Below, piece after piece: positions 3,282 through 48,784 of a DNA stretch of 64,000 bases. The notes beneath the pieces are model-generated. The model was not told the DNA's origin, did not search any database, and worked only from the letters and a program-made list of their open reading frames with translations. Numbering within the stretch: the first letter of the stretch is position 1; each line of letters starts with the position of its first letter. A program made the position numbers and the translations under genes. The stretch lies in contig JAGWBS010000040.1 of the NCBI GenBank assembly GCA_021295775.1, positions 906 through 64,905 on the forward strand, in the 5' to 3' direction. Source of the DNA: Pseudomonadota bacterium. GTDB lineage: Bacteria > Myxococcota_A > UBA9160 > SZUA-336.

Positions 3282-4163
3282 CTAGCGCGTGCCCTCAAGG
3301 AACACGCGCAGGGTCCGCAGCTCGGGCAGACCGCGCTGCGCCTCGACCAGGGCGACCAGCTTGCCTTCCCGCACCAACTGCACGACCCCCTCCGGCGGCG
3401 CTCCCCGCACCTCCTGCCGCCCGAGCTGGACCCCGTTTCCTACCCGCCGGCTGGTGCGCGCGTCGACCGGAAAGCTCGGCAGAGCTGTTCCGGCCGCCAT
3501 CGGGACAACGCGCTCGGACCCCAGATCGTCGATTCGGTCGAGGGGCACGGCCCCCTCGAGACCGAAGGGTCCGCTGCGCGTGCGGATGAGATCCCACAGC
3601 GTTCCGCCGGTACCCATTGCCTCGCCCAGATCGTGGGCGATCGAACGCAGGTAGGTGCCGGACGTGCAGTCGACCTCGATCTCGGCGTCCGGCGGCTCGT
3701 AGCGCATCAGTTCGATGCGGAAGATCGTGACCTCGCGCGGCTCGAGTTGCACGTCCTCGCCGCGGCGAGCCCGCCGATACGCCGCCTGCCCTCCGCGCTT
3801 GACGGCCGAGAACGGAGGCGGAACCTGCTCGATCCGGCCCTCGAAGCGGGACAGCGCTCGGCGCACCTGCGCCTCGTCGGGCCAGCCGCCCGAGTATTCG
3901 GCGACGCGCTCCCCTTCCCGGTCGTAGGTGGTGGTGCTCACGCCCAGCCGGAGCGTCCCGCGGTAGGCTTTTTCGCCATGCGTGAGCAGGCGCGAGAGCT
4001 TGGTCGCCTCGCCCAGCGCGATCGGCAGCACGCCCGTGGCCAGCGGGTCGAGCGTGCCCAGGTGACCGACGCGCCTCTGACCGGCCCACTGGCGCACGCG
4101 CTGGACCACGTCGTGCGAAGTCAGGCCCGGCGGCTTGTCGATGGTCAAGAAGCCGTCGATCAC
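3282..4163 (-). CDS. truB: tRNA pseudouridine(55) synthase TruB
   Basis: Translation VIDGFLTIDKPPGLTSHDVVQRVRQWAGQRRVGHLGTLDPLATGVLPIALGEATK... includes the catalytic GTLDP motif. The GTG start overlaps the rbfA TGA stop (GTGA). Confidence 0.95.
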   Translation of the reverse strand: MIDGFLTIDKPPGLTSHDVVQRVRQWAGQRRVGHLGTLDPLATGVLPIALGEATKLSRLLTHGEKAYRGTLRLGVSTTTYDREGERVAEYSGGWPDEAQVRRALSRFEGRIEQVPPPFSAVKRGGQAAYRRARRGEDVQLEPREVTIFRIELMRYEPPDAEIEVDCTSGTYLRSIAHDLGEAMGTGGTLWDLIRTRSGPFGLEGAVPLDRIDDLGSERVVPMAAGTALPSFPVDARTSRRVGNGVQLGRQEVRGAPPEGVVQLVREGKLVALVEAQRGLPELRTLRVFLEGTR

Positions 4164-4522
4164 GACTGGCCCTCCTCCGCCGGCCCCTCTCGCTCGGATT
4201 CGCTCGTGCCGGGTTCGGCCAGTAGCTGCTCGATCCTGCGAGCCTCGTCCATCGATCGGTCGCGCCGGAAGTCCAGCTCGGGCACGCGCCGCAAGCGCAA
4301 GCCCTCCGCCAGGCAGCTGCGTACGAACGGCCTGGCCCGGTCGATGGCCGCGGTCAGATCCTCGTCTCCCACGTAGAACACGCGCGCGTAGCTGAAATCG
4401 GCGGAGGGCCTCACCTCCGAGATGGCGAGTCCCCGCAGCCGCGGGTCGGCGACCCGCCGCGCGAAGATCTCCGCGAGCCGGGCCCGCAGTTCGTGGGACA
4501 GGCGTTGGCGAGAATGAGTCAC
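4160..4522 (-). CDS. rbfA: Ribosome-binding factor A
   Basis: 120-aa ORF ...RQRLSHELRARLAEIFARRVADPRLRGLAISEVRPSADFSYARVFY..., in the conserved position between infB/DUF503 and truB. Confidence 0.9.
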   Translation of the reverse strand: MTHSRQRLSHELRARLAEIFARRVADPRLRGLAISEVRPSADFSYARVFYVGDEDLTAAIDRARPFVRSCLAEGLRLRRVPELDFRRDRSMDEARRIEQLLAEPGTSESEREGPAEEGQS

Positions 4523-4535
4523 TTCGGGCGCTCCA

Positions 4536-4859
4536 TCAACCCTGTGCGTCCGGTTCGATTTCGGTCAACTCGTCGAGTTGGACCAAGGTGACGTCGTCCG
4601 CGACGACCTCGGCCAAGCCCAGGTCCTCGACGTAGCGAACCACTCGTTCCAGCGCTGTCCGCAGGTGACGCGGATCCCGTCCCAGCATCACGCAGCCGAT
4701 GCAGACCGAGTGGCGGTCGTCCGGATCGCCCAGTTCCGCCACCGAGGCGTTGAAGCGGTGGCGCAGGCGGTCCACCAGCGAACGCGCAACGCGCCTCCGC
4801 GCCTTGATGGAGTCGGCCTCGGGGACCGACAGCTCGATCAGCGCAGCCCCGATCCGAAT
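4536..4859 (-). CDS. DUF503 (YlxP-like) protein, probably initiated at ATT
   Basis: The ORF track begins at GTG 4775 (MDRLRHRFNASVAELG...). The same frame is open back to the infB stop and encodes IRIGAALIELSVPEADSIKARRRVARSLV, the conserved DUF503 N-terminus. There is no ATG/GTG/TTG in that stretch. GGGGAGG-CGGCC-ATT is at 4859. Confidence 0.7.
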   Translation of the reverse strand: MRIGAALIELSVPEADSIKARRRVARSLVDRLRHRFNASVAELGDPDDRHSVCIGCVMLGRDPRHLRTALERVVRYVEDLGLAEVVADDVTLVQLDELTEIEPDAQG

Positions 4860-4892
4860 GGCCGCCTCCCCGTGAGCGTCCCGCGAGGCCGC

Positions 4893-7520
4893 TCACAGCG
4901 TATCGGGCGTCTCCTCGACCTCGTAGCCCTCGATCCGGTCGCCCACCTTCACGTCGTTGTAGTTCTCGATGCCCATGCCGCACTCGAGCGGCGCCGACAC
5001 CTCGCGCGCATCGTCCTTGAAGCGGCGCAGCGATGCGAGCTGTCCGTCGTAAATTCTCACCCCGTCGCGGATCACGCGCACGCGGCTGTTGCGGCGAACC
5101 GTCCCCTCGGTCACCTCACAGCCCGCCACCGTGCCCACGCGCGGTACCACGAACAGCTCCTTGACATTGGCCGAGGCCAGCACCTTCTCCACCCGCCGGG
5201 CGGGGAGCAGGCCCTGCATCATGGCCTCGGCCTCCTGAAGCAGCTCGTAGACGATGTCGTAGCTGCGCAACGGCACTCCGTCGCGCTCGGCCGCCCGCCG
5301 GGCCGCGGGCTCCGGGACAACGTGGAACCCGAAGATCACCGCTTCGGACGCCTGGGCGAGCATCACGTCGCTCTCGTTGATGGACCCGACTCCCGAATGC
5401 AGCACGTTGAGCTTGACGCGCTCGGTGGAGAGTTTCTCGAGCGCCTCCGCGGTCGCCTCGACACTGCCGCGCACGTCCGCCTTGAGCACCACCCGAAGTT
5501 CCCATTTGTCCGCCTGTCCGAGGGCCGCGAAAAGATCTTCGGCGCTGATCTCCGACGCATCGGCGGGTTCGGTCACCGCTTGGCGCTTGCTCTCTTCGAC
5601 GCGGTGTTCCGCCACGCGCTTGGCTTCGCGCTCGTTCTTCATCGAAACCAGTTCGTGGCCGGCCTCCGGGACTCCGTTCAGTCCGATGAGCTGTACGGGC
5701 AACGAAGGGCCGGCCTGCTTGAGGTTCTGACCGCGGTCGTCGGTCAGGGAGCGCGCCCGGCCGTAAACGTTGCCCACGACAACGGCGTCGCCGCGCTTGA
5801 GCACCCCCTCCTGCACCAGAACCGTCGAAACCGGCCCGCGGCCCTTGTCGAGCGACGCCTCGACGACGACCGCGCGGGCTCGTCCCCTGGCCGGCGAGCG
5901 CAGCTCCAGGAGTTCGGCCTGAAGCCCGATCATCTCCAGCAGCTTGTCGAGATTCGTACCCTCGATGGCCGACACGTCGACGCAGATCGTCTCGCCGCCG
6001 AACTCCTCGGCGACCAGTTCGTGCTCCAGCAGGGCCTGCTTGACGCGCTGCGGGTCCGCGTCCGGGCGGTCGATCTTGTTGACCGCCACAATGATGGGCA
6101 CCTCGGCGGCCCGCGCGTGGTTGATGGCTTCGACGGTCTGCGGCATGACCCCGTCGTCCGCCGCCACGACCAGCACCACGATGTCGGTGACCTGGGCGCC
6201 GCGGGCGCGCATCTGGGTGAATGCGGCGTGGCCCGGCGTGTCGATGAAGGTGATCCGCTGGCCACCGGCCTCGACCTGGTAGGCGCCGATGTGCTGGGTG
6301 ATCCCTCCGGCCTCGCCGTCGACGACGCGCGTCTCGCGGATCGCGTCCAGCAGCGACGTCTTGCCGTGATCGACATGGCCCATCACGGTCACCACCGGCG
6401 GACGCGTATCGCCCTCGGCCGAGTCCGTCGGCCCGCGGGTGGCCTCGGCCACGGCGCGCTCGGTATCGGTCTCGACGCGGATCACTTCGAAGCCGTATTC
6501 GGACGCGATCAGGCTCGCGACCTCGGACTCGACCATGCCGCCGCGCTCAAGCTCGACTCCGAGATCCTGCGCCCGGCGCGTGAGTTCCCGGAGCTTGACG
6601 CCCAACTCCGCGGACAGGTCCGCGACCGGGATCGAAGCTCCCAGACGCACCAGCTTGCGGCGCTCGCCGACCATCGACGGGCGCCGACCCGAAGCGCCGC
6701 GGCGGCGCCTCGAATTCAGCCGCGACTGCTGTTCGACCAGCATGCGGCGCTTCTCGAGGTGCGCCTGGACGTTGCCGCGCATCATGCGCGCCATCGTCTC
6801 CTGCTCTTTGAGATTCTGGCCCTGTACGACCTGCTGGCGTCGGTGAAGCTTGCGGGCCGCGGGTCGCCGGTCCGGGGGCTGTCCAGCTCCGCCCCGGTCG
6901 GGCGCGGCAGCCGATCCCGCAGCCGGTTGCGAAGCCTCGGGCAGCGAGGGCAGCGTCTCGGAAGCTCCGGCAGCGGGAGCTGCGGGGGCGCGCTGTTCCG
7001 AATTCAGCAGCGGGTCGTCGACCACCTTGACGGGAGTGGTCATGCGCGGCGCCGCGGCCGAACTCGCCGAGGCCGCGAGCGGAGGCGCTTCGCCGGTCTC
7101 GGGCGGGGCCGGAGAGGGGACGGGCTCGGGCTCCTCGACCACGGGCTCCACCGGCGGCGGAGATTGAGGAGGCTCGGGCGCGATTTCGGGAGTCGACTCC
7201 AGCGGTACAGGAGCCTCGACCTGGAGCGGCGAGGGTTCGGCCTCTTCGAGCGGAGTCGGCGCCGGCGCGGCGGCCGGCCCGTCTTCGACCGCGCGCTTGC
7301 GGCGGCGTCGACGCACCACGGTCCCACCCACGCGCTTGTCCTCGGTGACCACGTCCGAGGCGCGGCCGAAGCGGCGGCGCAGATCGTCCGCCGTCTCCGA
7401 GTCGAGCCCGGACATGGGGCTGCGGATCTCGATTCCGATCTCTCCGGCCTTGGCGATCAACTCGTCGCGCTCTAATCCGAGCTCTTCGGCCAGCTTGTAT
7501 GCCCGGACTTTCACAGCCAT
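4893..7520 (-). CDS. infB: Translation initiation factor IF-2
   Basis: 875 aa. The N-terminus is [32 protein letters not shown], followed by a Pro/Ala-rich linker. The GTPase core reads [20 protein letters not shown]...DTPGHAAF...NKID. Confidence 0.97.
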
Positions 7521-7550
7521 CCTCAGATCCGTCCCCGGCAGCGCGGGAAG

Positions 7551-8858
7551 TTACTCCCCGCCCTCGCTGGAGGCAGCCTCGGCCTCGGCGGCCAGGCGAG
7601 CCTCTTCTGCCTCGCGCTCGGCTTTCTCGATCGCCAGCCTCCCGGCCCTCTCCCTCACCTCGGCGGCGCCCTCAGGAGAAACTCCGGGAATGGCGGTGAG
7701 CAGTTCGTCCTCCGCCTCGGCGAGCTCCTGCAGGCTGGCCACGCCGTGGTCGAGCAAGAGCCTGGCCTCGTACTCCCCGGCGCCTTCGACCGCCGACAGG
7801 GCCTCCTCGAGTTCCTCCTGGACCTCGCGCATGTAGCTTTCGCTCTTGATGTCGATCTTGTAGCGCGTGAGCTGGACCGCCAGCCGCACGTTCTGGCCCT
7901 TCTTGCCGATCGCGAGCGAGAGCTGGTCGTCGGGGACGATCACGTCCATCGAACGAGACTCGTCGTCGACCATCACCCGCACGACCTGGGCGGGCGCGAG
8001 CGCCGAGCACACGTAGCGCACGGAGTCCTCGGCGTAGGGAACGATGTCGATCTTCTCGCCGCGCAGTTCCTGAACCACCGCCTGGACCCGGCTGCCGCGC
8101 ATGCCGACGCAGGCTCCGACGGGGTCCACGTCGCTGTCGCGGGACACCACCGCGATCTTCGAGCGCGCACCCGGTTCGCGCGCCGCCGCCTCGATCCGCA
8201 CGATGCCCTCGTAGATCTCGGGCACCTCCTGCTCGAACAGTTTGGTCAGAAACTCGGTGCATGCGCGCGACAGAATGATCTGCGGGCCCTTCGACTCGCG
8301 CAGCACGTCGAGCACGTAGGCGCGGATCCGCTCGTTGATCCGGAACATCTCGCGCGGAACCTGCTCCTTGCGCGTGAGGATCGCCTCGGCGCGTCCCAGG
8401 TCGACGATCAGGCTTCCCTTCTCGACCCGGCGCACGATGCCGTGGACGATTTCGCCCTTCCGGTCGTGGTACTCGTCGTAGACCATCTGGCGCTCGGCGC
8501 CGCGGACTTCCTGGACGATGACCTGCTTGGCGGTCTGCGCCGCGATCCGACCGAACTCCTTGGTGTCGATCTTCATTCCGATCTGGTCGTCGGGCTCGCA
8601 CTCGGGGTCGTGCTCCAGAGCGTCCTCGAGCGAGATCTCGGTGTCGTCGGAGGGCTCGCCTTCGACCACCGTCTTGAACTCGAAGAGCTCCACCTCGCCC
8701 GACTCCATGTTGAACTTGGCCTCGATTTCGCGTTCCGCCCCCAGCTTGCGGCGGGCGGCCGAGACCATGGCCTTCTCGAGCGTATCGACGATGATCGCGC
8801 GGTCGATTCCCTTGTCTTTTCCGACTTGGTCGATGATGCGGCTCAGATCCAGGTCCAT
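7551..8858 (-). CDS. nusA: Transcription termination/antitermination factor NusA
   Basis: The real start is ATG 8858 ([38 protein letters not shown]...), with GGTGGAG 7 nt upstream. S1 and KH regions are recognisable. The ORF-track extension to 9230 is spurious and overlaps rimP. Confidence 0.95.
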
Positions 8859-8871
8859 GGCCCATCTCCAC

Positions 8872-9417
8872 CTATTTCGCGGCCACCGGGCGGTGCCGGG
8901 CGGCGGCCGCCGGTCGCTTGGCCCGCATGCGGGCGTCCGGGGGCGCCGCCGGGACCCGACCGACCGCGGAGGCTTTGGCGATACTCTCGAACGGGATCGC
9001 GAAGAGAGCGCGGTCGACGCGCACCCGGACCTCGCGTCCGTCGAAGGACTCGAGGGGGCCACGGAACCGCCGCCGGCCCTCCAGCGGCTCCCGCGTTTCG
9101 ATCGCCACGCGGCTGCCGACCGCGCGCTCGAAATCCTTTTTCCGCGCCAGGACGCGGTCCACCCCAGGAGAGGTGACCTCGAGCAGATAGGCGCCGGCGA
9201 TCGCGTCGCGGGCGTCGAGACCGTGGCCAATCTCGCGCGAAACCTCGGCGCACTGATCGAGGAGCACCCGGCCGTCGCCCGCGCGGGTGTCGATCACCAC
9301 GCGCACCCGCGCTCGACCACGGCCCGCCTGAATCCCCGCGTCGACGAGTTCAAGGCCGTGGTCCTCGACCACGGGTTCGACGATCGCCCGCAGGTTCTCC
9401 GGGATGTCTCGATACAT
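8872..9417 (-). CDS. rimP: Ribosome maturation factor RimP
   Basis: Start ATG 9417: [30 protein letters not shown]...[14 protein letters not shown]. It is the first gene of the rimP-nusA-infB block. Confidence 0.9.
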
Positions 9418-37947: not shown

Positions 37948-38018
37948 GAGCCCTCCCGGAAGCCGGGCCATCATAACGCGGCTTGAACGCCGGGCCGGGC
38001 TTGGCCCATGCTCGCTGG

Positions 38019-39509
38019 ATGCCTCTGCTGATCGGCGAGATCTTCCGCCGCAACGCCCGGGTCGTCCCCGACTCGCCCGCCGCGGTGATGGGCGAGGTCG
38101 AACTCTCGCACGCGCGGCTGAACGCGCGGGGCAACGCCACCGCGCGCGTGCTGCGCGAGGGTGGCGTGCGGCACGGCGACCGGGTGGTGACCTGGGCAGA
38201 CACCAGCCTGGACATGCTGCCTCTCTACGTCGGTCTGGCCAAGCTGGGGGCGGTCTTCGCCCCGCTCAATGCGCGGCTGGGGGTGGGCGAGGCCGCCGAG
38301 GTCGCGGCGGTGGCGCGTCCCCGACTGCTGGTCGCGGACGCCGAGCGCGCCCCGGAGCTGGACGAGCTGGCCCGCCGCGCCGAGGTGCCGCAGGTCGCCA
38401 GGCTCGGAGGGGAGGGGCCGGGAGACGACCTGGTCGCGGCCGCGGCCGCCGCTCCGGACGGGGAGATCGATGAGCCCGGGCTGCGCGAGACCGACACGCA
38501 CGTCCTGTTCTTCACCAGCGGCAGCACCGGGCGTTCCAAGGGCGTGATCCTGTCGCACCGGGCCAACTACCTGCGCACCTACCAGGGCGTGTTCCGGGAC
38601 GAGCCCGAGCGCTCGATCTGCATGTTCCCGTTGTTTCACATGGCCGCCTTCACGCTGGCGACCAGCGCCTGGCAGACCCGCGGGGAAATCTGCTTCGTGC
38701 AGCCCCCCACGGCCGACGCCCTGCTCGCGGCCGTCGAGCGGCGGCGCGCCAACCGCCTCTACTGCCTGCCGGCGGTGTGGGGCCGCATCCTGGAAGCCGA
38801 TCCCGAGCGCTACGACGTCTCCAGCCTGCGCCAGGTGGACACCGGCACCTCCGCCACGCCCATCGAACTGCTGCGCGCGCTCAAGCGGCGCTTTCCCGGC
38901 ACGGCCACGCGGGTGCACTACGGCTCGACCGAGTGCGGTTCGGGCGCCAGCCTCGCGGACGCCGACGTGCTGCGCAAGCCGGGCAGCGTCGGCCTGCCGC
39001 CGCCCGGCGTCGAGCTGCGGCTCGACGAGAAGGGCGAGATCTGCGTGCGCAGCGACGTCCTGATGGACGGCTACTTCGACAACCCCGAGGCCACGGCGGA
39101 GGCGCTGCAGGACGGCTGGTACCGGACGGGCGACATCGGTTCGCTCGACGACGAAGGCTATCTCTCGATCGTCGGAAGGGTACGCGACATCATCCGCACG
39201 GGAGGCGAGAGCGTCGCGCCGACCGAGGTCGAGCAGGCCCTGGCCGACCACCCCGGAATCCGCGAGCTGGCGGTGGTGGGCATCCCCGACCCGGCCTGGG
39301 GCGAGGTGGTGTGCGCGGTCGTGGTCCCGAACGAGGGCGCCGAAATCGACCTGGAGGGACTGCAGGCGCATTGCGCCTCCCGGCTCGCGCGTTTCAAGCA
39401 GCCGCGACGCCTGGAGCTGATCGACGCCCTGCCCCGCACCGCCGCCACCCGACAGATCCAGCGCACGCTGCTGGTCGAGCGGATCGCTTCGCAGCCCCCG
39501 GGAGCCTGA
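38019..39509 (+). CDS. AMP-dependent synthetase/ligase (acyl-CoA synthetase family)
   Basis: ATG 38019: MPLLIGEIFRRNARVVPDSPA...LFFTSGSTGRSKGVILSH...YGSTECG...WYRTGDIG...GRVRDIIRTGGESVAP... An alternative TTG start is at 37983. Confidence 0.92.
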   Translation: MPLLIGEIFRRNARVVPDSPAAVMGEVELSHARLNARGNATARVLREGGVRHGDRVVTWADTSLDMLPLYVGLAKLGAVFAPLNARLGVGEAAEVAAVARPRLLVADAERAPELDELARRAEVPQVARLGGEGPGDDLVAAAAAAPDGEIDEPGLRETDTHVLFFTSGSTGRSKGVILSHRANYLRTYQGVFRDEPERSICMFPLFHMAAFTLATSAWQTRGEICFVQPPTADALLAAVERRRANRLYCLPAVWGRILEADPERYDVSSLRQVDTGTSATPIELLRALKRRFPGTATRVHYGSTECGSGASLADADVLRKPGSVGLPPPGVELRLDEKGEICVRSDVLMDGYFDNPEATAEALQDGWYRTGDIGSLDDEGYLSIVGRVRDIIRTGGESVAPTEVEQALADHPGIRELAVVGIPDPAWGEVVCAVVVPNEGAEIDLEGLQAHCASRLARFKQPRRLELIDALPRTAATRQIQRTLLVERIASQPPGA

Positions 39510-39593
39510 GGACGGGCCCGAGCCGCGTGAGGATTCGGGCCATGCCGGCGAAGTCCGCCCCAAGCCCTCCCGGCCTGCGCTAGAGTCGCCCCG

Positions 39594-40178
39594 ATGGAGC
39601 GCGAGATCATGCTGACCGGCATCGGCGGGCAGGGCGTCCAGCTCGCGGCGCAGGTTCTCGCGCGCGCCGCCGTGCGCGAGGATCGTCACGCGATCTACCT
39701 GGGCACCTACGGCGGCACCATGCGCGGCGGGAACACCGACTCCACGCTGGTGGTCGGCGACGCCCCGATCTCCGCTCCCCCGATCGTCTCGCGCACCTGG
39801 GCGGCGCTGGCGATGCACCACCAGTTCTGGGAACCCGTGCGGGACAAGCTGCGGCCGGGCGGCGTGGCGATGGTCAACTCTCCGGCGTTCGAGGGCGAAC
39901 TCGACCGCGAACGGCACCGGGTCTTCGAAGTGCCGGCGACGCCGATCGCGGCCGGGCTCGGCGGGGCGATGGCATCGTCGCTGGTCCTGGCCGGAGCGTT
40001 CGCCGCGACCACGGGACTGGTCGAGCTGCCGTCGCTGATCGAGGCCATGCGCGAGTCCCTGCCGCCCTACCGCCGGCAGCACCTGGAACTCAACCAGGCG
40101 GCGCTGGCAGCCGGTTTCGAAGCCGGCTCCCCCGGCGCGGCACCGGCCTGGCCGAAAAATGGCGGAGCGCCGGCGTGA
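39594..40178 (+). CDS. 2-oxoacid:ferredoxin oxidoreductase, gamma subunit
   Basis: Translation MEREIMLTGIGGQGVQLAAQVLARAAVREDRH... Confidence 0.88.
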   Translation: MEREIMLTGIGGQGVQLAAQVLARAAVREDRHAIYLGTYGGTMRGGNTDSTLVVGDAPISAPPIVSRTWAALAMHHQFWEPVRDKLRPGGVAMVNSPAFEGELDRERHRVFEVPATPIAAGLGGAMASSLVLAGAFAATTGLVELPSLIEAMRESLPPYRRQHLELNQAALAAGFEAGSPGAAPAWPKNGGAPA

Positions 40179-40423
40179 GAGCGATCGAAAGCCGCGGCAC
40201 CGTCACGATCGCGAAGCAACTCTGCAAGGGCTGCGAACTGTGCATCCCCGCCTGCCCGCCCCGGGTGCTGGAGATGTCGGAGGCCCACAACGAGCAGGGC
40301 TTCCCCTACCCCGAGCTGCGGCCAGGCTGCACCGGCTGCGGCGCCTGCCTGCTGGTCTGCCCGGACTTCTGCTTCGAGGTCTTCCTGTACCGGGAGCCGG
40401 TCGCTCACGAGGTCGCGCCGTGA
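40175..40423 (+). CDS. 2-oxoacid:ferredoxin oxidoreductase, delta subunit (2x[4Fe-4S] ferredoxin)
   Basis: The GTG start overlaps the gamma-subunit TGA (GTGA). The two Cys clusters are CKGCELCIPACP and CTGCGACLLVCP. Confidence 0.88.
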   Translation: MRAIESRGTVTIAKQLCKGCELCIPACPPRVLEMSEAHNEQGFPYPELRPGCTGCGACLLVCPDFCFEVFLYREPVAHEVAP

Positions 40424-41502
40424 GCCGCGAACTGATCGAGGGCTCCGCCGCCATCGCGGAAGCCGCCATCGCCGCGGGCTGCCGCTTTTTCGCCGGCTAC
40501 CCGATGACGCCCTTCACCGAGGTGCTGGAGCACTTCGCCAGGCGTCTGCCCGAGGTCGGCGGCGTCTGCATCAACGCGGAGAGCGAGCTGGAGGCGGTCG
40601 GGATGGCCTGGGGGGCCGTCTCCACCGGCGCGCGGGCGGCGACCGGTTCGACCGGCCAGGGCCTGTCGCTGATGCAGGAGTCGTTCTCGGAGATCACGCG
40701 CGCGGAGCTGCCGCTGGTGATCGTCAACATGGCGCGCGGCCAGGGCGACTACTACCAGTCGACGCGCGGCGGCGGGCACGGCGACTACCGTCACATCGTG
40801 CTGGCGCCGATCGACATCCACGAGGCGGTCGAGCTGACCCAGCTTGCGTTCCACCTCGCCGACGCCTGGCGCAACCCTGTGCTGATCTACGGCGACTATC
40901 TGCTGGCGCACACTTACGAGGCCGTCGACATCCGCGCGCTCGACTTCGGCGAGCTGCCGGCCAAGGACTGGGCCGTCGACGGCTCTTTGGGCGGAACCGG
41001 ACACTCCCGCAGCGTCAATCCGCTGGGGTTCCGCAAGGGCGAGACGGGCGTCGACCCGGACTCGATGTGGAAGCGGCTGCAGGCCAAGCACGACGCGATC
41101 GAACGCGAAGAGGCGCGCTGCGAGACGGAGTTCGTCGACGACGCCGAGACGGTCGTCGTGGCCTTCGGCTCGCTGGCCAAGTTCGCCCGCTACGCCGTCC
41201 GCGAGCTGCGCGGCGAGGGAGTGCGCGTGGGCTACGTGCGGCCCATCACGCTCTGGCCGTTCCCCTCGCAAGCCCTGGCGAGCGCCTGCGACGGAGCCGC
41301 CAACGTCGCCGTGCTGGAGCAGAACGCCGGCCAGATGATCGACGACGTGCGGCTGGCATTGCTGGGCCGCGCGCCGGTCGTCGCGATCGGGGAGATCTCG
41401 ACCGATCCGGCCGGATTCGGCGTCGGCCCCCTGCTCGACCCCGAGCGGGTGCGCGGGCGCATCGAAGCGGTGCTGGAAGCGCCGCCAGGAGGACCCCGGT
41501 GA
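40420..41502 (+). CDS. 2-oxoacid:ferredoxin oxidoreductase, alpha subunit
   Basis: GTG 40420 overlaps the delta-subunit TGA. Translation VSRELIEGSAAIAEAAIAAGCRFFAGYPMTPFTEVLEH... Confidence 0.9.
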   Translation: MSRELIEGSAAIAEAAIAAGCRFFAGYPMTPFTEVLEHFARRLPEVGGVCINAESELEAVGMAWGAVSTGARAATGSTGQGLSLMQESFSEITRAELPLVIVNMARGQGDYYQSTRGGGHGDYRHIVLAPIDIHEAVELTQLAFHLADAWRNPVLIYGDYLLAHTYEAVDIRALDFGELPAKDWAVDGSLGGTGHSRSVNPLGFRKGETGVDPDSMWKRLQAKHDAIEREEARCETEFVDDAETVVVAFGSLAKFARYAVRELRGEGVRVGYVRPITLWPFPSQALASACDGAANVAVLEQNAGQMIDDVRLALLGRAPVVAIGEISTDPAGFGVGPLLDPERVRGRIEAVLEAPPGGPR

Positions 41503-42347
41503 GCCGACTCCCGGTTCTGGACACCGACCGCCCGCCGCAGGCCTCGGCGGTCAAGATCGCGCGCGACAAGCCGGATCTGCTGCTGACCGAGCGCCACGAT
41601 CTCTGCCCGGGCTGCGGCGAGCCCCTGGCCATGCGCGTGCTGCTCGAGGCGATCGAAGAGCTGGACGCGAGCCGAATGGCGATCGGCGTGGTCGGCATCG
41701 GCTGCTACACCGCCTTCAGTCCGACCATGGACGTGGACAGCATCCAGGCGCTGCACGGTCGAGCGCCCTCGGTGGCGACCGGCGCCAAGCGCATGCGGCC
41801 GGAGTCGCTGGTGTTCACGCTCCAGGGCGATGGGGACATGGTCAACGAGGGCCTGCAGGAGGTCATCCACACCGCCGCGCGGGGCGAGTCCGTGACCTGC
41901 GTGCTGCTCAACAACGGCGTGTTCGGCGAGACCGGCGGCCACATGACCGCGACCACGGTGCTCGGGCAGCGCACCAAGAACTCGCTCGACGGCCGCGACG
42001 CCGCCTACCACGGCCACCCGATCCTGATCGGCGACCTGCTCGCCCAGCTCGGCGGAACCGCCTACGCGGCGCGCGGCGCGGTGGACGACGCCGCCGGCGT
42101 CGCGCGCGCCAAGCGCATGCTGCGGCGCGCCTTCCAGACCCAGCTCCGAGGCGAGGGCTTCTCCTTCGTCGAGATCCTGACCATGTGTCCCACCGGCTGG
42201 TTCATCCCCACGCCCGACGGCCCCGGCTACCTCGACGAGGTGATGGGCACGGTGCACGTGACCGGAGAGCTCAAGGCCGGCGGCAAGCTGACGACCACGG
42301 CCGAACTGATCGCGCGCCGCGGGGGCCGCGAAGCGCCGACCGCGTAG
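41499..42347 (+). CDS. 2-oxoacid:ferredoxin oxidoreductase, beta subunit (TPP-binding)
   Basis: GTG 41499 overlaps the alpha-subunit TGA. Translation ...HDLCPGCGEPLAMRVLLEAI...TLQGDGDMVNEGLQEVIHTAARGESVTCVLLNNGVFGETGGH... Confidence 0.9.
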   Translation: MSRLPVLDTDRPPQASAVKIARDKPDLLLTERHDLCPGCGEPLAMRVLLEAIEELDASRMAIGVVGIGCYTAFSPTMDVDSIQALHGRAPSVATGAKRMRPESLVFTLQGDGDMVNEGLQEVIHTAARGESVTCVLLNNGVFGETGGHMTATTVLGQRTKNSLDGRDAAYHGHPILIGDLLAQLGGTAYAARGAVDDAAGVARAKRMLRRAFQTQLRGEGFSFVEILTMCPTGWFIPTPDGPGYLDEVMGTVHVTGELKAGGKLTTTAELIARRGGREAPTA

Positions 42348-42355
42348 AGCCCGCC

Positions 42356-43135
42356 TCAGGCGGGACGGCGCCCCCAGGCGGACATCGCCACGGGGGACAG
42401 GATCGCGAAGTCCGGCGAGCGGGCCTGGGCCAGCGCGCGGTAGATCAGGTCGGCGGGGATCTCGCCCCGTTCGACGCTCGCCTCCCGCGAGCGCGCCAGG
42501 GCGGCCACGTACCACTCGGCGCTCCGCTGACCGCCGTGCATGGTCCAGACCCGGCCCTGGGCGCCGCACTCGGTCAGCCCCCCGCCCCGCACCCCCCCCC
42601 GCAGCCCGCGCCCGCTGCGATCGCGGGCCGAGTCGGAGCTGAGCATCACCAGCGAGCGGAACGGCTCCGGGATCTCCTGCTCCAGAAACTGGGTCCAGTC
42701 GCCGTCCTCGACGACCACCCAGCCTCCGGGCCTGGCGGCCGCGACCAGCTTGTCCAGGACCTGCTCGCGCTGGTGGAGGTGCTGGAGCAGCGCTCGCGCG
42801 TGCACCAGGTCGAACTCCGCGTCGCCCAGCTCGGCCACGGTCACGTCGAGCTGCCGGACTTCGGCGTTCGGGCCGACCTCGACGTGGAAGCGCGTGTCGA
42901 CGTCGACGGCCAGAACCGATCCCCGCTCTCCCACTCGCTCCGAAAGCCAGCGGGTGACCGTCCCGGAGCCGGCCCCGGCCTCCAGGCAGCGCCAACCCTC
43001 CGACACGCCGGTCCGTTCGAGGACCTCGAAAGTGATCGGATCCCGCTGGTAGGTCAGGTGGTCCAGGCGCGCGCCCTCCTGGGCGACCTGGTCGGGGTCC
43101 TTCGAGATCCGATAGGAGATGCGCTCAGCCGGCAT
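42356..43135 (-). CDS. Class I SAM-dependent methyltransferase
   Basis: ATG 43135, with GGGAG-N5 upstream. Translation ...WRCLEAGAGSGTVTRWLSERVG...VLAVDVD...FDLVHARALLQHL... It contains a G9 run and multiple G-tracts (42578-42613). Confidence 0.85.
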   Translation of the reverse strand: MPAERISYRISKDPDQVAQEGARLDHLTYQRDPITFEVLERTGVSEGWRCLEAGAGSGTVTRWLSERVGERGSVLAVDVDTRFHVEVGPNAEVRQLDVTVAELGDAEFDLVHARALLQHLHQREQVLDKLVAAARPGGWVVVEDGDWTQFLEQEIPEPFRSLVMLSSDSARDRSGRGLRGGVRGGGLTECGAQGRVWTMHGGQRSAEWYVAALARSREASVERGEIPADLIYRALAQARSPDFAILSPVAMSAWGRRPA

Positions 43136-43234
43136 CGGTTCTCCCTCGCCTCCGCGCCTGCCCCCACAGCACGCCGCTCCAGACGGCGCAGGGAAGCAAC
43201 CCGCCGGCCGTGCGGGAGAAAATCCCCGGACGGC

Positions 43235-43690
43235 TCACTCGAACAGGTAGCGCGTCACGCTCTCGACCACGCATGCCGGCTTCTCGCTGCCCTCCACCTC
43301 CACGCTGATGCGCACCACGACCTGGACGCCGCCCGGTACGTCCTGCGCCTCCGCGACCTCGGCGCCGCAGCGCACCCGCGAACCGACCGGCACGGGGGCG
43401 GGGAAACGCACTTTGTTGGCCCCGTAGTTGATGCCCATCTGGGCGCCCGGAACCGTGATCAGCCCGGGCAGGAACATATTGGTCAGAGACAAGGTGAGGT
43501 AGCCGTGGGCGATCGTGCTGCCGAAGGGACCCGCCGCGGCGCGCTCGGCGTCGATGTGGATCCACTGGTGGTCCCCGGTCGCCTCGGCGAAGAGATCGAT
43601 GCGCGCCTGGTCGATCTCCAGCCATTCGCCGTACCCCAGGTGCTGGCCGACCGCGGCCTTGAGCTCGTCTGCGCTGTGGAACTCCGCCAT
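43235..43690 (-). CDS. MaoC-like (R)-specific enoyl-CoA hydratase/dehydratase
   Basis: ATG 43690: MAEFHSADELKAAVGQHLGYGEWLEIDQARIDLFAEATGDHQWIHIDAERAAAGPFGSTIAHGYLTLSL... The rest of ORF 43235..45445 is spurious. Confidence 0.9.
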   Translation of the reverse strand: MAEFHSADELKAAVGQHLGYGEWLEIDQARIDLFAEATGDHQWIHIDAERAAAGPFGSTIAHGYLTLSLTNMFLPGLITVPGAQMGINYGANKVRFPAPVPVGSRVRCGAEVAEAQDVPGGVQVVVRISVEVEGSEKPACVVESVTRYLFE

Positions 43691-43783
43691 GTTCTCCCTC
43701 GCCGTCTCGCGCGGTTCTCGACCGCGCCGACGGAGCGCCATTATCGCCGCGCGACCCCGGCGCTGGCCAGCGCGCCCGCTGCT

Positions 43784-44992
43784 ATGCTCCGGCACATGGG
43801 CTCCGCTCCCCGAGCGCTCGAGGGCGTGCGCGTTCTGGACCTCGGCACGCTGTACGCGGGACCCGCGCTGGCGGCGATGCTCGGCGATCTGGGCGCGGAC
43901 GTGATCAAGGTCGAGCCGCCGGGGGGAGATTCCCTGCGCCAGCTCGGGCAAAAGGTCGGGGGCCAGTCCCTGGTCTGGGCCATGACCGGGCGCAACAAGC
44001 GCGCCGTCACGCTGGACCTGGGGCAGGAACGCGGACAGGAGATCCTGCGGTCCCTGCTCGTGCGCAGCGACGTGGTGGTGGAGAACTTCCCGCTGCCGGC
44101 CCAGCGGCGCCTGCACTGCACCTACGAGGAGCTGCGCGCCGTCAATCCGCGGCTGATCGTGGTGAGCGTGAGCTGCTACGGACGTAGCGGCCCGTACAGC
44201 GAAAGGGTCGGCAACGGGACACTGGCGGAGGCCTTCGCCGGGCTCACGCACATGACGGGCGAAGCGGACGGGCCGCCGCTGCTGACCTCGCTGCCGATCG
44301 GCGACGTGCTGGCGTCGGTCCAGGGGGTGATCGGCGCGCTGGCCGCCTGCTATCACCGCGACGCCGGCGGCGGCGGCGGGCAGCACGTCGACGTGAGCAT
44401 GTACGAGCCCGTGCTTCAGTTTCTGACCAACCCCATCCTGCGCTACGGCCACAGCGGCGTGAGCGAGAGCCGCGCCGGCAGCCGCATTCCCGGTTCGGCG
44501 CCCCGCAATACCTACCGCACCCGCGACGGCCGCTGGGTCGTCATCTCCGCCGTCACCGACCGCATGGTCGCGCGTCTCCTGCAGGCGATGGGCCGGGACA
44601 GCCCGGCCAACCGGGAGCGCTTCGGGCGCCAGCCGGATCGTGTCCGGAACGAACTGGAAATGGACGCGGAAGTCGCCGACTGGGTGGCGCAGACCGATGG
44701 CGACGCGGTGGTGGAGACGCTGGCCGCCGCGGCCATCCCGGTCTCGGCCGTGAACGACGCGGCGGCGATCTTCGCCGATCCGCACATCGCCGCGCGCGGG
44801 AATCTGCTGGAAGTGACCGACCCCCGGGCCGGTCCCCTGCGCGTCCCCGCGCCCACGCCGCGCCTCAGCGAAACACCGGCGCGGATCCGCTGGACGGGTC
44901 CCGAAGTGGGCCAGCACAACCGCGAGGTCTACGCCGAACTCGGCCTGGACGACTCGGAACTGGAGGCGCTGCGGGAAGCCGGCGTGGTCTGA
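43784..44992 (+). CDS. CaiB/BaiF family (class III) CoA-transferase
   Basis: Translation ...LEGVRVLDLGTLYAGPALAAMLGDLGADVIKVEPPGGDSLR...VVENFP... The start is ATG 43784 or ATG 43796. The long upstream part of ORF 42185..44992 is spurious. Confidence 0.9.
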   Translation: MLRHMGSAPRALEGVRVLDLGTLYAGPALAAMLGDLGADVIKVEPPGGDSLRQLGQKVGGQSLVWAMTGRNKRAVTLDLGQERGQEILRSLLVRSDVVVENFPLPAQRRLHCTYEELRAVNPRLIVVSVSCYGRSGPYSERVGNGTLAEAFAGLTHMTGEADGPPLLTSLPIGDVLASVQGVIGALAACYHRDAGGGGGQHVDVSMYEPVLQFLTNPILRYGHSGVSESRAGSRIPGSAPRNTYRTRDGRWVVISAVTDRMVARLLQAMGRDSPANRERFGRQPDRVRNELEMDAEVADWVAQTDGDAVVETLAAAAIPVSAVNDAAAIFADPHIAARGNLLEVTDPRAGPLRVPAPTPRLSETPARIRWTGPEVGQHNREVYAELGLDDSELEALREAGVV

Positions 44993-45035
44993 GCCGGCGC
45001 TATACTCGCGGGGCGAATCCTTCCCGGAGGTCCGA

Positions 45036-45575
45036 GTGCAGCGCGTAACGATCCTGGATCCCACCGCCCCGCCCCCCGAGACCTCGGCCGATCCCGGCCC
45101 GCCCGCCGGCTCCCTTTCCGGCCGCCGAGTCGGGATCCGTTTCGACCAGACCTGGCGCTCTTTCATCACGGCCACGCGCGACTGGGCCCCGCGTCTCGAA
45201 GCGGCCGGCGCGCAGGTGCGCTGGTGGGACGCCGGCAGCCGCGTCGGCGAAGACGGCGAGCGCACTCGCCGCGAGCTGACCGAGTTCGTGCGGGAGGTCG
45301 ACGTCGCCATCGTCGGCCTGGGCAATTGAGGCTCCTGTACCGCCTGGACCGTCCACGACAGCGTGGCGGCGGTCGAGGCGGGCAAGGCGGCGGTCGCCGT
45401 CGTAACCCGGGAGTTCGAGGCACTGGCCCACAGCATGGCCGCCAACGCCGGCCGGCCCGGACTGCGCGTGCACGTGCTGCCCTACCCGCTCGAGTCGCTC
45501 GCCCCCGAGCGGGTCGCCGAGATCGCCGCCGAGCACTACCCCAAGCTGATGGGCACGCTGGGAGCGCAGGCGTGA
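45036..45575 (+). CDS. Probable selenoprotein (UGSC-motif family). The in-frame TGA at 45327-45329 is read as selenocysteine.
   Basis: GGAGG-N5-GTG at 45036. ORFs 45036..45329 and 45363..45575 are in the same frame and are separated by one TGA. Read-through gives ...VDVAIVGLGN-U-GSCTAWTVHDSVAAVEAGKAAVAVVTREFEAL..., where U-G-S-C is a UxxC redox motif. No start codon or SD lies between the TGA and 45363. A hairpin follows downstream. Confidence 0.65.
45347..45374 (+). promoter_or_regulatory. Candidate bacterial SECIS hairpin
   Basis: GACCG-T-CCACG-ACAG-CGTGG-CGG-CGGTC forms two 5-bp stems with an internal bulge and a 4-nt apical loop. The base of the stem lies 17 nt after the TGA. Confidence 0.4.
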
Positions 45576-45582
45576 GTCGGGC

Positions 45583-46653
45583 ATGACGATCGACCGCGAC
45601 TGCGGGCCCGAGGGCTGCGAGATCGACTGGCTGGCCAGTCCCAAAGTCGAAGTCGATCCCGACGCCGCCGAATTCACGCGCTTCGCCACCGACTCCGGCT
45701 GGGGCGACGGTCTGCCGCTCGTCCCGCCCACCGAGGAGCGAGTGCGCGGGCACGTGGCGGCCTCGGGCCGCTACCCCGACGAGTGCCTGGCCGACCTGCC
45801 GCCGCGCGGCGGGCGCTGCACGGTGGAGAAGGTCGCGATCAACGCCGTGATGGCGGGCACGCCACCGGAGTCGATGCCGCTGCTGTGCGCGGCGCTGGCG
45901 GCCATGGCGGAGCCGGACTTCAATCTCTTCGCCCTGAACACGACCACCTGCTGCGTGGTTCCCGGCGTTTTCGTCAACGGGCCGTCACGCGACGCTCTCG
46001 GCATTCCCTACGGCCCCGGCTGCTTTGGCGGGCAGGCCGGACCCGCCCCGGCCATCGGCCGCGCGATCCGGCTGGTGATGCGCAACGTGGGCGGGCAGGT
46101 GACGGGCCGGACGTCCAAGAGCGTGTTCGGCCAGCCGGCGCGCGTGACCGGCGTGGTGGTCGCCGAGTGGGAAGAGCGCTCGCCCTGGGCCCCGCTGGCA
46201 GAGCGCCGCGGCGTGAGCGGCGACGCGCTCACCGTCAAGGACGTCACCGGCACGATCGACGTGGCCGACGTGCTGGCGACCAACGGCGTCGATCTGCTGG
46301 AGATCGTGGGCAAGTCGCTGGCCTTCCCGGGCACCAACGCCTTCATCGCGCCGGTGGCGGACTCGGAAATCATGCTCGCGATCGCCCCTCCCTGGGCGGA
46401 CCTGATCGCGGCCTCCTATCCCACGCTCGAAGACGTCCAGCAGGCGCTCCACGAGGGGGCGAAGCTGCCGCTCTCCTGGTGGCCCGAGCCTCACCGCGAG
46501 CAGCTTCGGGAGCGCGTCGACTCCGACGGCTTCGTGCACCTGGTGGAAGGGCCGGAACGCATTCTGGTGATCTGCTGCGGCGGCCTGGGCAACCTGCACG
46601 CGCTGGCGCTGCACAGCTTTGGACCCACGCGCGCCGTCACTGTGCCGTTCTGA
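45583..46653 (+). CDS. Conserved-looking hypothetical protein (356 aa)
   Basis: ATG 45583 lies 7 nt after the UGSC-type gene. Translation MTIDRDCGPEGCEIDW...GWGDGLPLVPPTEERV...VEKVAINAVMAGT...LNTTTCCVVPGVFVNGP... The composition is protein-like and I recognise no family. Confidence 0.65.
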   Translation: MTIDRDCGPEGCEIDWLASPKVEVDPDAAEFTRFATDSGWGDGLPLVPPTEERVRGHVAASGRYPDECLADLPPRGGRCTVEKVAINAVMAGTPPESMPLLCAALAAMAEPDFNLFALNTTTCCVVPGVFVNGPSRDALGIPYGPGCFGGQAGPAPAIGRAIRLVMRNVGGQVTGRTSKSVFGQPARVTGVVVAEWEERSPWAPLAERRGVSGDALTVKDVTGTIDVADVLATNGVDLLEIVGKSLAFPGTNAFIAPVADSEIMLAIAPPWADLIAASYPTLEDVQQALHEGAKLPLSWWPEPHREQLRERVDSDGFVHLVEGPERILVICCGGLGNLHALALHSFGPTRAVTVPF

Positions 46654-46687: not shown

Positions 46688-48784
46688 GTGGCGCAGAAAC
46701 GCAGCGATCTCGACCAGCTCTTCCACCCCCGAGGCGTGGCGATCATCGGACAGATCAACCGCGGGCTGTCCGAGGAGCGGACGCGGGCGCTGCACGATCC
46801 GCGCTACGGACCCGGCGGCTGGTCGCTGGTCAACCCCAAGGGCGGCGCGGTCGGTTCCCTGCCGATCTACACCTCGGTGGCCGAGGTCCCCGGGCCGCTG
46901 AGCCTGGCCGTGATCAGCGCCCCGCCGCGACTCTGCGCGGGGGTGATCGAAGAGTGCGGCCTGCGCGGCATCCGGCACGCCATCGTGTTCAGCTCGGGCT
47001 TCTCCGAGACCGGTGCCGAGGGCGCCGCCCACGAGCGCGCGCTGGCCGCGGCCGGCCGCCGCGCCGGGGTGCGCATCCTGGGACCGAACACCAACACCAA
47101 CCTGCTCGAGAGCCTGCCGGAGATCCCCGGGCTGCGCGGCGGCAAGATCGGCGTCGTCACTCAGTCGGGGCACAACGGCCGCCCGATCGTGCAGGGCGCG
47201 CACTTCAACGTCGGCTTCACGCGCCAGATCCCCTGCGGCAACGAGTGCGACCTGGACGTGTGCGACTTCATCGAGTACTTCGCGTACGACGACGAGACGG
47301 CCGTGATCGCCGGCTACATCGAGGGCTTCCGCAACCCCGACCGGCTGCGGCACGCGCTGGCCGCCACGGGCTCGCAGGGCAAGCCGGTGGTGCTGCTGAA
47401 AATGGGCAGCACCGCCGCCGGCTCGCGCATGGCCCGCTCCCACACCGGTCATCTGACCGGCGCCGACGCGGTCGTCGACGGCCTGTTCCGGCAGTACGGA
47501 GTGGTGCGGGTGCGCGACCTCGACGAGCTGCTGGAGACCGCCGCGCTCTTCGCGCGCCTGCCCGCCGGCACCGGTCCGCGCACCGCTCTTTACAGCATCT
47601 CGGGCGGATCGGGCACGCTGATGGCGGAGATGGCCGAGCGCTGCGGCGTGCCGCTGCCCCGTCTGAGCGACGCGACCCAGGAGGCGCTGTACGCCCACCT
47701 GCCCCGCTTCCTGAGCGTCGCCAACCCCGTCGACAACGGCGGTCAGTTCGTCACCGGCGCCCCGCCCGAGGTTCGGCGCGAGCTGATCGACCGGATCGCA
47801 GACGATCCGGGCGTGGACCTGGTGGTGGTGGGCGTGACGGGAGCGGTCCCGCCGATGAGCGACCTGCTTGGCGAGGACCTGGAGTTCCTGGTCGAGCGCG
47901 GGCTGCGCAAGCCCGTCGTCGTCACCTGGAATTCGCCCAAGGTCGACGAGCCCGGCTTCGACGCCATCGTGCGCTCGCAGCTTCCGCTGTTCAGAAGCTT
48001 CCGCGGCTGCTTCGAAGCGCTGCGGAACTACGCGGAGTACCAGCGGAGCCGCGAACGCTTCCGAACCCGCTCCGGGCGTGCGGCGCGTCTGCCGCGGGCC
48101 GCAGGCGATCTGCTGCAGGACGCCTCGGGGTCTCTGGACGACGCCTCCTCCCGGGCCCTGCTGGAAGCCTTCGGCCTGACGCTGGCCGAAGAACGGACGG
48201 TCGCTTCGGCCGCGGCCTCGGCGCGCGCGGCGCGCGAGCTCGGCCCGCCGGTCGCCCTCAAGATCGCCTCCCCCGACTTCCCGCACAAATCGGACGCGGG
48301 CCTCGTCCGGCTCGGGATCGGCAGCCCGAGCGAAGCCCGGCGCGTCTACCCGCAGCTCCTCGCCGCCGCCCGGCGGGCCGACCGGCGCGCCCGGATCCAA
48401 GGGGTCACGGTGCAGGAGATGGTCTCCGGGGGCGTCGAGACGATCGTCGGCGTGACGCGCGACCCGGTCCTCGGCCCCGCCGTGATGGTCGGGCTCGGCG
48501 GCGTCTTCGCCGAGATCCTGGCGGACGTGGCGGTCCGCCCCGTCCCGCTCGATGCGCGCGACGCCCGCGAGATGATCGAGTCCCTGCGCGGCTACCCGCT
48601 GCTGACCGGCGCGCGCGGCCGGCCCCGGGCCGACGTCGCGGCGCTGGCGCGCACCGTCGTGCGCGTGGCCCGGCTGGCGAGCGCTCTCGGCGACCGCCTG
48701 CTGGAACTCGACCTGAACCCGGTGCTGGTGCGGCCCGAGGGCGCGGTCGTGGTCGACCGCCTGGTCGTGCTCAGTAGCCGCTGA
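46688..48784 (+). CDS. ADP-forming acyl-CoA synthetase (acetate--CoA ligase family; CoA-binding + succinyl-CoA-synthetase-like + ATP-grasp)
   Basis: Translation ...LFHPRGVAIIGQINRG...ISAPPRLCAGVIEECGLRGIRHAIVFSSGFSETG...RILGPNTN... The C-terminal ATP-grasp part reads VALKIASPDFPHKSDAGLVRLG. The start is GTG 46688, or possibly TTG 46619. Confidence 0.88.
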   Translation: MAQKRSDLDQLFHPRGVAIIGQINRGLSEERTRALHDPRYGPGGWSLVNPKGGAVGSLPIYTSVAEVPGPLSLAVISAPPRLCAGVIEECGLRGIRHAIVFSSGFSETGAEGAAHERALAAAGRRAGVRILGPNTNTNLLESLPEIPGLRGGKIGVVTQSGHNGRPIVQGAHFNVGFTRQIPCGNECDLDVCDFIEYFAYDDETAVIAGYIEGFRNPDRLRHALAATGSQGKPVVLLKMGSTAAGSRMARSHTGHLTGADAVVDGLFRQYGVVRVRDLDELLETAALFARLPAGTGPRTALYSISGGSGTLMAEMAERCGVPLPRLSDATQEALYAHLPRFLSVANPVDNGGQFVTGAPPEVRRELIDRIADDPGVDLVVVGVTGAVPPMSDLLGEDLEFLVERGLRKPVVVTWNSPKVDEPGFDAIVRSQLPLFRSFRGCFEALRNYAEYQRSRERFRTRSGRAARLPRAAGDLLQDASGSLDDASSRALLEAFGLTLAEERTVASAAASARAARELGPPVALKIASPDFPHKSDAGLVRLGIGSPSEARRVYPQLLAAARRADRRARIQGVTVQEMVSGGVETIVGVTRDPVLGPAVMVGLGGVFAEILADVAVRPVPLDARDAREMIESLRGYPLLTGARGRPRADVAALARTVVRVARLASALGDRLLELDLNPVLVRPEGAVVVDRLVVLSSR

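Follow-up and report, generated by a model that had tools for sequence, protein, structure and literature searches.

We report that a plus-strand gene at 45036 to 45575 of a 64,000-nucleotide stretch of a metagenome-assembled contig (JAGWBS010000040.1; hereafter, the window) is very probably a single gene for a selenoprotein of the UGSC family, 179 residues long, in which an in-frame TGA at codon 98 (45327 to 45329) is taken as the selenocysteine (Sec) codon. Among predicted selenoprotein families, that of the UGSC-containing protein is accepted (PMC2398784, PMC1976440, PMC13188914) and has been in surveys from 2007-2008; the example cited in reviews is ABI76733.1, and members have been reported from Hyphomonas neptunium and are abundant in the Global Ocean Sampling (GOS) metagenomes. 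Reviews of 2022 and 2026 still list it as uncharacterised (PMC9312934, PMC13188914). The family is already known, and the gene in the window is an additional member of it. What is new here is a conserved partner gene, a flavodoxin-like structural model and a clade of proteins of about 180 residues that falls below the NCBI equivalog cutoff for the family.

The starting point was a sequence-only reading of this DNA, which had proposed a selenoprotein gene split into two open reading frames (ORFs), 45036..45329 and 45363..45575. Its account of the local sequence was accurate. The two ORFs share a frame and are parted by a single TGA, the 11 codons from that TGA to GTG 45363 are open, and the upstream ORF begins with the signal GGAGG-N5-GTG, in which the Shine-Dalgarno (SD) sequence at 45026 to 45030 stands 5 nt from the GTG start at 45036. 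Read-through gives ...EVDVAIVGLGN-U-GSCTAWTVHDSVAAVEAGK..., and the translation does contain the U-G-S-C motif that had been pointed out, a putative redox center encoded by TGA GGC TCC TGT (45327 to 45338). The complete predicted gene comprises 179 codons plus the true stop codon, TGA at 45573 to 45575, which follows the same ...LG-x-x-x C terminus as is found in the homologues; at the other end, the homologues begin with an equivalent M-x-R-[IV]-x-I-L-D-P-T-A. In DNA that is about 72% GC, the GC content at third codon positions (GC3) in the gene's frame is 0.90 on the 5' side of the internal TGA and 0.93 on the 3' side, so both halves look coding. TGA is an ordinary stop in this region, where it ends 9 of the 10 plus-strand called genes near the locus; the genetic code is not reassigned here.

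Homology supports the continuity of the gene. With the TGA translated as Cys, the read-through product matches Pfam PF24696 ("UGSC family") with 112.5 bits against a gathering cutoff of 25, and the match runs from residue 5 to residue 176 on positions 1-171 of the 172-position profile, across the TGA. Among 5.8 billion proteins searched, 109 relatives were found, of which the full-length ones are about 185 residues long, share 44-56% identity with the query and cover 97-99% of it. All 75 Cys-type sequences have Cys in the TGA column (GLGN-C-GSC-T). The sequence-only reading had left it possible that homologues end at the position of the TGA; instead, every full-length homologue has Cys there, and homology goes on past it. 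Within the motif, C98, G99 and C101 never vary in the family alignments, and S100 hardly does; the invariant residues comprise P9, R35, D37, W40, R41, W50, D89, G94, L95, C98, G99, C101, T102, P149, P151 and L152. A family named after the U/C-G-S-C motif, as mentioned in the sequence-only reading, does exist, as PF24696 and as the NCBIfam equivalog NF041046, "UGSC family (seleno)protein", with which the window protein aligns at E = 1e-20.

Eight of the closest relatives are "proteins" of about 99 residues that stop exactly at GLGN and are 55-67% identical to the window protein over its N-terminal half. The DNA encoding two of them, P0103 and P0102 (loci L001 and L002), has TGA at this point, and the frame then goes on with GSCTSWTVHDAV...VLPYPL...; the gene calls cut the gene into ORFs of 99 and about 70 residues. 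The database entries of about 99 residues ending in GLGN are gene-caller truncations (two were checked at the DNA level). Indeed, every gene call that we examined is split, just as had been predicted of standard gene callers.

The in-frame TGA is widely conserved. The codon pattern G-L-G-N-TGA-G-S-C-T-x-W-T was sought in one genome from each of 185,579 species and was found in 81 of these genomes, against about 0.01 hits expected by chance according to an estimate from information content. Leaving aside L003, which is the contig of the window itself, these 81 matches together with L001 and L002 make up 83 further Sec loci. The 81 matches are mostly labeled Acidimicrobiia, including Candidatus Poriferisocius, and the other labels among them are Myxococcota, "Deltaproteobacteria", Spirochaetales and, once, Dormiibacterota. 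Complete Acidimicrobiales chromosomes, such as OZ242339.1 and NZ_OZ241836.1, are among the carriers of the Sec form. After the TGA the frame stays open for 79-101 codons in all Sec loci except two that are cut by contig ends, and the C terminus is homologous (...VLPYPL...LG), a feature that the scan pattern did not demand. Among 68 distinct Sec forms, the residues just past the motif are kept while their codons vary synonymously (V in 66, H in 64 and D in all 68).

Directly downstream of the UGA lies a 20-bp hairpin (45336..45384, plus strand) resembling a selenocysteine insertion sequence (SECIS), which was defined by folding, by comparison of Sec with Cys forms and by a covariance model. The shorter hairpin that the sequence-only reading had noticed at 45347-45374 is real and constitutes the inner part of this longer one. 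Its stems pair 45336-38 with 45382-84, 45340-45 with 45376-81, 45347-52 with 45369-74 and 45353-57 with 45362-66, enclosing an apical loop ACAG (45358-45361) and leaving a bulge CG (45367-68). The hairpin begins 6 nt and its apical loop 28 nt past the UGA. The bSECISearch model reportedly allows 16-37 nt between the UGA and the apical loop, a range that includes the 28 nt seen here. The 74 nt from the TGA fold with a ΔG of -42.4 kcal/mol, or z = -2.5 relative to dinucleotide shuffles, which by itself is modest, since the first 62 nt are 73% GC. For comparison with Cys-type members, we used as a control set 75 metagenome loci found with the same pattern but with a TGY codon where the Sec forms have TGA. 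The distinct Sec forms (n=68) fold with a mean ΔG of -26.0 ± 3.4 kcal/mol over nt +9 to +60, and the Cys forms (n=60) with -15.6 ± 3.2; the difference has a Mann-Whitney p of 9e-22 and amounts to about -10 kcal/mol after adjustment for GC, all of this among related sequences that are not phylogenetically independent.

The pairing is maintained by coordinated change. The 5' arm of the outer stem is formed by the codons of T-S-W (ACC UCC UGG), and the 3' arm by the purine-rich, most variable segment of the protein (VAAQGK, ALEEGK, VASRGK, AVEAGK and so on; 45369-45384 in the window). The arms pair in registers summing to 68-72 and use differing, non-conserved codons: in the window and in locus L059, T-A-W (GCC) pairs with E-A-G (GCG), and in others the pairs are UCC/GGA or UCG/CGA. 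Among the 17 sequences in the window's register, 86.5% of cells are paired, as against 40-56% when the partners are slid; the outer helix reaches 95%, two of its positions have changed on both sides, and the window itself shows a compensatory double change from U-A to G-C. A covariance model built on these 17 sequences (R1) finds all 83 of the 83 Sec loci searched, exactly at the TGA and with 31-91 bits, while Cys-type loci reach at most 32 bits; on the window it matches 45327-45388 with 67.4 bits. When 69 distinct sequences are aligned to R1, 79.9% of cells are paired versus 40-66% for slid partners, double-sided changes number 48 versus 23.8 ± 3.1 in shuffles (none of 500 shuffles reaches 48), and the covariation score is 0.151 versus 0.04-0.06 when slid. 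Because there are five main registers in which the 3' arm pairs, no consensus hairpin emerged when RNAalifold was applied to an ungapped stack of the 69 sequences; grouping by register and realigning with the covariance model settled the matter. The loop differs by sub-clade, being ACAG or ACGC in some and GCR in others. These results support the view that this Sec-specific, co-varying hairpin behaves as expected of a bacterial SECIS.

The amino acids encoded by the 3' arm change along with the T-S/A-W codons with which they pair. In this segment the RNA structure appears to dictate the protein sequence, as judged from the aligned sequences, and the locus offers a clear case of a SECIS constraining protein sequence.

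The selenocysteine reading is upheld by three lines of evidence: homology across the junction, Cys in the TGA column of the homologues, and a co-varying hairpin specific to the Sec forms. Recoding through the UGA and a SECIS in the manner of SelB-dependent systems is well supported; the dependence on SelB itself, and the actual insertion of selenium, are what we infer from that. In the proposed mechanism, translation would start at GTG 45036, and the hairpin at 45336-45384, acting as a bacterial SECIS, would reprogram the ribosome at UGA 45327. The hairpin would recruit SelB·GTP·Sec-tRNA(Sec), Sec would be inserted, and translation would continue to the stop at 45573. The source organism would accordingly be expected to have the capacity for Sec synthesis and insertion.

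Several points weigh against this reading. In searches with tblastn using E. coli SelA, SelB and SelD, with ARAGORN for tRNA-Sec and with Rfam on the window, selA, selD and tRNA-Sec were not found in the 64-kb window or in the fetched loci, and neither was selB, the sole SelB-like hit (5766-6395, minus strand) being translation initiation factor IF-2. In the literature consulted, no experiment shows selenium in, or activity of, a UGSC protein. Rfam has no match to the hairpin, either at gathering thresholds over the whole window or at permissive E-values over 45200-45500, where only chance miRNA-like matches appeared; bacterial SECIS elements are poorly represented in Rfam (preprint 10.64898/2026.04.03.716425). 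In the window's loop, ACAG, the G comes fourth, whereas the loop of many relatives is GCR. The sequences behind the ΔG comparison are, as stated, related to one another; so are the 69 behind the covariation counts, and their alignment (A6) was fitted to the model structure. Finally, the match to NF041046 scores 74.3 bits against a cutoff of 125 and covers profile positions 50-146 of 147 only.

In the same searches, the hit at 5766-6395 was rejected as a selB candidate because it is IF-2, encoded in a conserved nusA - infB - truB cluster (3282-9230, minus strand) that has infB at 4893-7520 and room for rbfA between infB and truB. This infB matches the SelB probe and could pass for selB in quick scans. 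The window holds no other gene with an in-frame TGA; three other hits were ordinary stops followed by a same-frame neighbor.

The absence of Sec machinery from the window and the fetched loci is also what speaks for a selenium-free read-through, in which a suppressor tRNA or a near-cognate one (Cys, Trp or Gly) or, when selenium is scarce, Cys-tRNA(Sec) would read the UGA, placing C, W or G at position 98. Insertion of Cys at Sec codons has been reported for some systems when selenium is limited. However, leaky read-through has no need of a conserved, Sec-specific hairpin, which SelB decoding does require, and a general suppressor would be costly where TGA is the genome's main stop. The lineages with Sec forms also belong to groups that are reported as rich in selenoproteins, Deltaproteobacteria and Actinobacteria being among these (PMC1794560), or as having the full Sec machinery, as does one order of Acidimicrobiia (bioRxiv 10.64898/2026.04.03.716425). 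We regard selenium-free decoding as improbable. Another possibility takes the gene calls at face value, since these give exactly such a split in the window and its relatives: translation would stop at TGA 45327 and restart near GTG 45363, yielding polypeptides of 97 and 70 residues that assemble non-covalently, and the 70-residue piece alone does still match PF24696 and NF041046. Yet the 11 codons that would be skipped vary synonymously and encode G-S-C-T-x-W-T-V-H-D, the motif that the family conserves most. In 59 of the 68 distinct Sec forms, a non-start (GTC, GTT, GCN or CTG) aligns with GTG 45363, and in only one of the 68 does any in-frame start among the 30 codons that follow the TGA have an SD-like motif. 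In the window, GTG 45363 sits within a stem of the hairpin, and the Cys-type homologues are all single chains. Two separately translated polypeptides are thus very improbable.

A pseudogene or an assembly error would need a single base change, from the Cys codon TGC or TGT to TGA, mutated or misread, and would leave only a 97-residue fragment to be made. The source is a metagenome assembly, and sequencing errors are possible for single reads (PMC1976440, PMC2398784). Against this, the TGA recurs in 83 other loci from at least 81 species with downstream frames intact and conserved, the hairpin is present at the TGA and absent from the Cys forms, the contig, which is 215 kb long in ENA ERZ24894576, was recovered in two samples, and GC3 remains at 0.93 past the TGA. 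Conservation effectively refutes this explanation, to which we assign almost no probability. The reading that we retain is that of one selenoprotein gene decoded through the UGA.

The NF041046 score is a property of the clade. Nine other members of about 180 residues that were tested, both Sec and Cys forms, score 62-80 bits on this profile; most of them align to profile positions of about 42-146, and P0089 aligns over 4-146 yet scores 71 bits. The clade has an N-terminal region of its own, I-L-D-P-T-A...W-R-S. By these profile matches, the window protein is placed in a long-form subfamily (about 180 residues) that lies within PF24696 and is related to, but outside, the NF041046 equivalog. As this cutoff is missed, genes of the clade probably stay split in annotations. 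The long-form Sec-type gene with a similar SECIS-like element is found at loci L004-L084 in metagenome-assembled genomes (MAGs) labeled Acidimicrobiia, Myxococcota, 'Deltaproteobacteria', Spirochaetales and Dormiibacterota. SecA of the window is 64-70% identical to that of uncultured Myxococcota and "Deltaproteobacteria" MAGs. The spread over these labels suggests either lateral transfer of the UGSC gene and its partner or unreliable taxonomic labels of the MAGs.

For the fold of the protein, we turned to an AlphaFold2 model, and it counts against the assignment that follows that the model is of P0001, the closest full-length Cys homologue, which is 55-56% identical to the window protein. The P0001 model (predicted local distance difference test [pLDDT] score 93.6) consists of five β-α units, and its C/U-G-S-C motif lies where strand β3 ends and at the N terminus of helix α3. 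Its topology resembles that of flavodoxin-like proteins, which have three α/β/α layers and five parallel strands. The top Foldseek matches in the PDB are flavodoxin-like domains (the flavodoxin domain of flavodiiron proteins, MdaB and WrbA), with E ≈ 3e-4, TM scores of 0.4-0.5 and root-mean-square deviations of 5-6 Å; in a profile search against the PDB, the flavodoxin domain of rubredoxin:oxygen oxidoreductase came up with a weak E value of 0.34. On the strength of this model, the window protein is most likely a flavodoxin-like α/β domain. A thioredoxin fold has been proposed for UGSC (PMC2398784). However, no protein described as a member of the thioredoxin family is among the 50 best PDB matches of the P0001 model, and with five β-α units and flavodoxin-like matches, a thioredoxin-like fold is unsupported. 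The modeled position of Sec98 and Cys101, at the end of β3 and the N terminus of α3, has a geometry that would suit a redox-active selenenylsulfide or selenol-thiol couple, and U-G-S-C may accordingly perform redox chemistry.

A set of Cys-type UGSC proteins of about 270-275 residues (P0073-P0081; Acidimicrobiia where named) carries an N-terminal NifU-like domain, which has a CxxC of its own and scores 24.8-25.3 bits against a Pfam threshold of 27. These fusions hint at a link to iron-sulfur (Fe-S) clusters or thiol redox chemistry. They may correspond to the 'UGSC/Unknown_1 fusion' of PMC2398784 (Figure S1A), in which Unknown_1 could be either the NifU-like domain or the partner family described next.

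The UGSC gene is followed, 7 nt past its stop, by a gene at 45583..46653 (plus strand) for a 356-residue protein of an unannotated family. Of the fetched loci, 78 of the 83 Sec-type and 66 of the 75 Cys-type ones contain this partner along with UGSC, and it is directly adjacent to UGSC in the loci whose gene calls were read. Its family comprises more than 3,000 database clusters, all named 'hypothetical'; the protein has no Pfam match (even at E = 10), no NCBIfam match and no PDB relative by sequence or profile. Its broadly conserved cysteines are C7, C12 (CGPxGC), C79 and C147. A fragment that is 100% identical to the partner (P0130, locus tags J4G09_...) belongs to an NCBI metagenome-assembled genome. 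In Foldseek, a model of the partner (pLDDT 80) weakly resembled the class I fumarate hydratases, which are Fe-S enzymes (E ≈ 2e-3, TM ≈ 0.27), a resemblance that may serve as a lead and is not a finding. Neither the pairing of UGSC with this partner nor the flavodoxin-like fold is described in the searched literature that mentions UGSC.

Upstream, 43 nt before the UGSC gene, a 402-residue family III CoA-transferase (PF02515) is encoded at 43784..44992 (plus strand). A homologue occurs in 21 of the 83 Sec and 29 of the 75 Cys loci, and it adjoins UGSC in the window, L001 and L002. The gene after the partner, at 46688..48784 (plus strand), encodes an acyl-CoA synthetase with the domains of the NDP-forming type (CoA_binding_2 / Succ_CoA_lig / ATP-grasp_5). 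It is the last gene of the apparent operon in the window only, such a gene being near UGSC in 2 of the 83 Sec loci.

Set amid genes of acyl-CoA and organic-acid metabolism, the UGSC protein would work jointly with the adjacent 356-residue product, and the conserved adjacency points to a physical or functional coupling of the two. On the best reading, UGSC would be the selenol/thiol redox subunit of the partner enzyme, with a role in acyl-CoA or organic-acid metabolism. Tentatively, we raise the possibility that UGSC and its partner form a previously unrecognised two-component (seleno)enzyme acting on a CoA-activated organic acid. As far as the two models go, such an enzyme may combine a flavodoxin-like subunit bearing the U/CxxC center with a Cys-rich catalytic subunit faintly like the Fe-S hydro-lyases. 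A CoA-activated organic acid is suggested as the substrate because a family III CoA-transferase and enoyl-CoA hydratase recur as neighbors, and an Fe-S- or thiol-linked role would be in keeping with the NifU-like domain fused to some Cys forms.

Further upstream of the apparent operon, 39591-42329 (plus strand) encodes a 2-oxoacid:ferredoxin oxidoreductase of four subunits (POR gamma, ferredoxin-like delta, alpha and thiamine pyrophosphate [TPP]-binding beta), preceded by an AMP-binding acyl-CoA ligase (38001-39491, plus strand); other UGSC loci do not share this neighborhood. Over the junction of the alpha and beta oxidoreductase genes, ARAGORN called a 95-nt tRNA-Ser(GGA) at 41442-41536 (plus strand), which Rfam did not detect at its gathering threshold; this is probably a false positive. 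We also set aside a 935-codon ORF at 42185-44992 (plus strand) as a high-GC artefact, the real gene there being the CoA-transferase at 43784-44992. Several long ORFs on the strand opposite the UGSC gene, such as 43235-45445 (minus strand), are artefacts too.

UGSC is among the most abundant predicted selenoprotein families of aquatic metagenomes, and gene callers are prone to split or truncate the present gene and its relatives, which occur in at least 81 species genomes. Several truncated products of about 99 residues already stand in the protein database. A subfamily model would help, since the clade of about 180 residues misses the curated NCBI equivalog cutoff. For experiments, the near-obligate 356-residue partner, the flavodoxin-like model, the CoA-transferase neighbors and the NifU-like fusions provide starting points.

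Among known systems, the closest is the UGSC-containing protein defined by NF041046. The window protein resembles it in the U-G-S-C motif, in the alternation of Sec and Cys, in having a SECIS-like element directly 3' of the codon, and in significant similarity over the C-terminal two-thirds of the profile; it differs in that it falls, with its clade of about 180 residues, below the 125-bit cutoff and has its own N-terminal region. The Cys-type members of PF24696, such as P0036 (Sphingobium chlorophenolicum), P0055 (Rhizorhabdus wittichii) and P0078 (Sphingomonas zeicaulis), can be aligned over their full length. In contrast to the window gene, they have TGY at the position of the TGA and lack the stable downstream hairpin. 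The hairpin itself shares no sequence similarity with the bacterial SECIS prototype, that of E. coli fdhF, from which it further differs by the absence of an Rfam match and by its 3'-side bulge (CG). A more distant parallel is offered by PrdB and GrdB (PF07355) of the D-proline and glycine reductases, which likewise carry a UxxC motif in a small or medium-sized protein that acts with a partner subunit (motif list in PMC2398784, Table 2). Our searches detected no relation to them in sequence or fold, and the likeness to these reductase subunits is one of analogy only.

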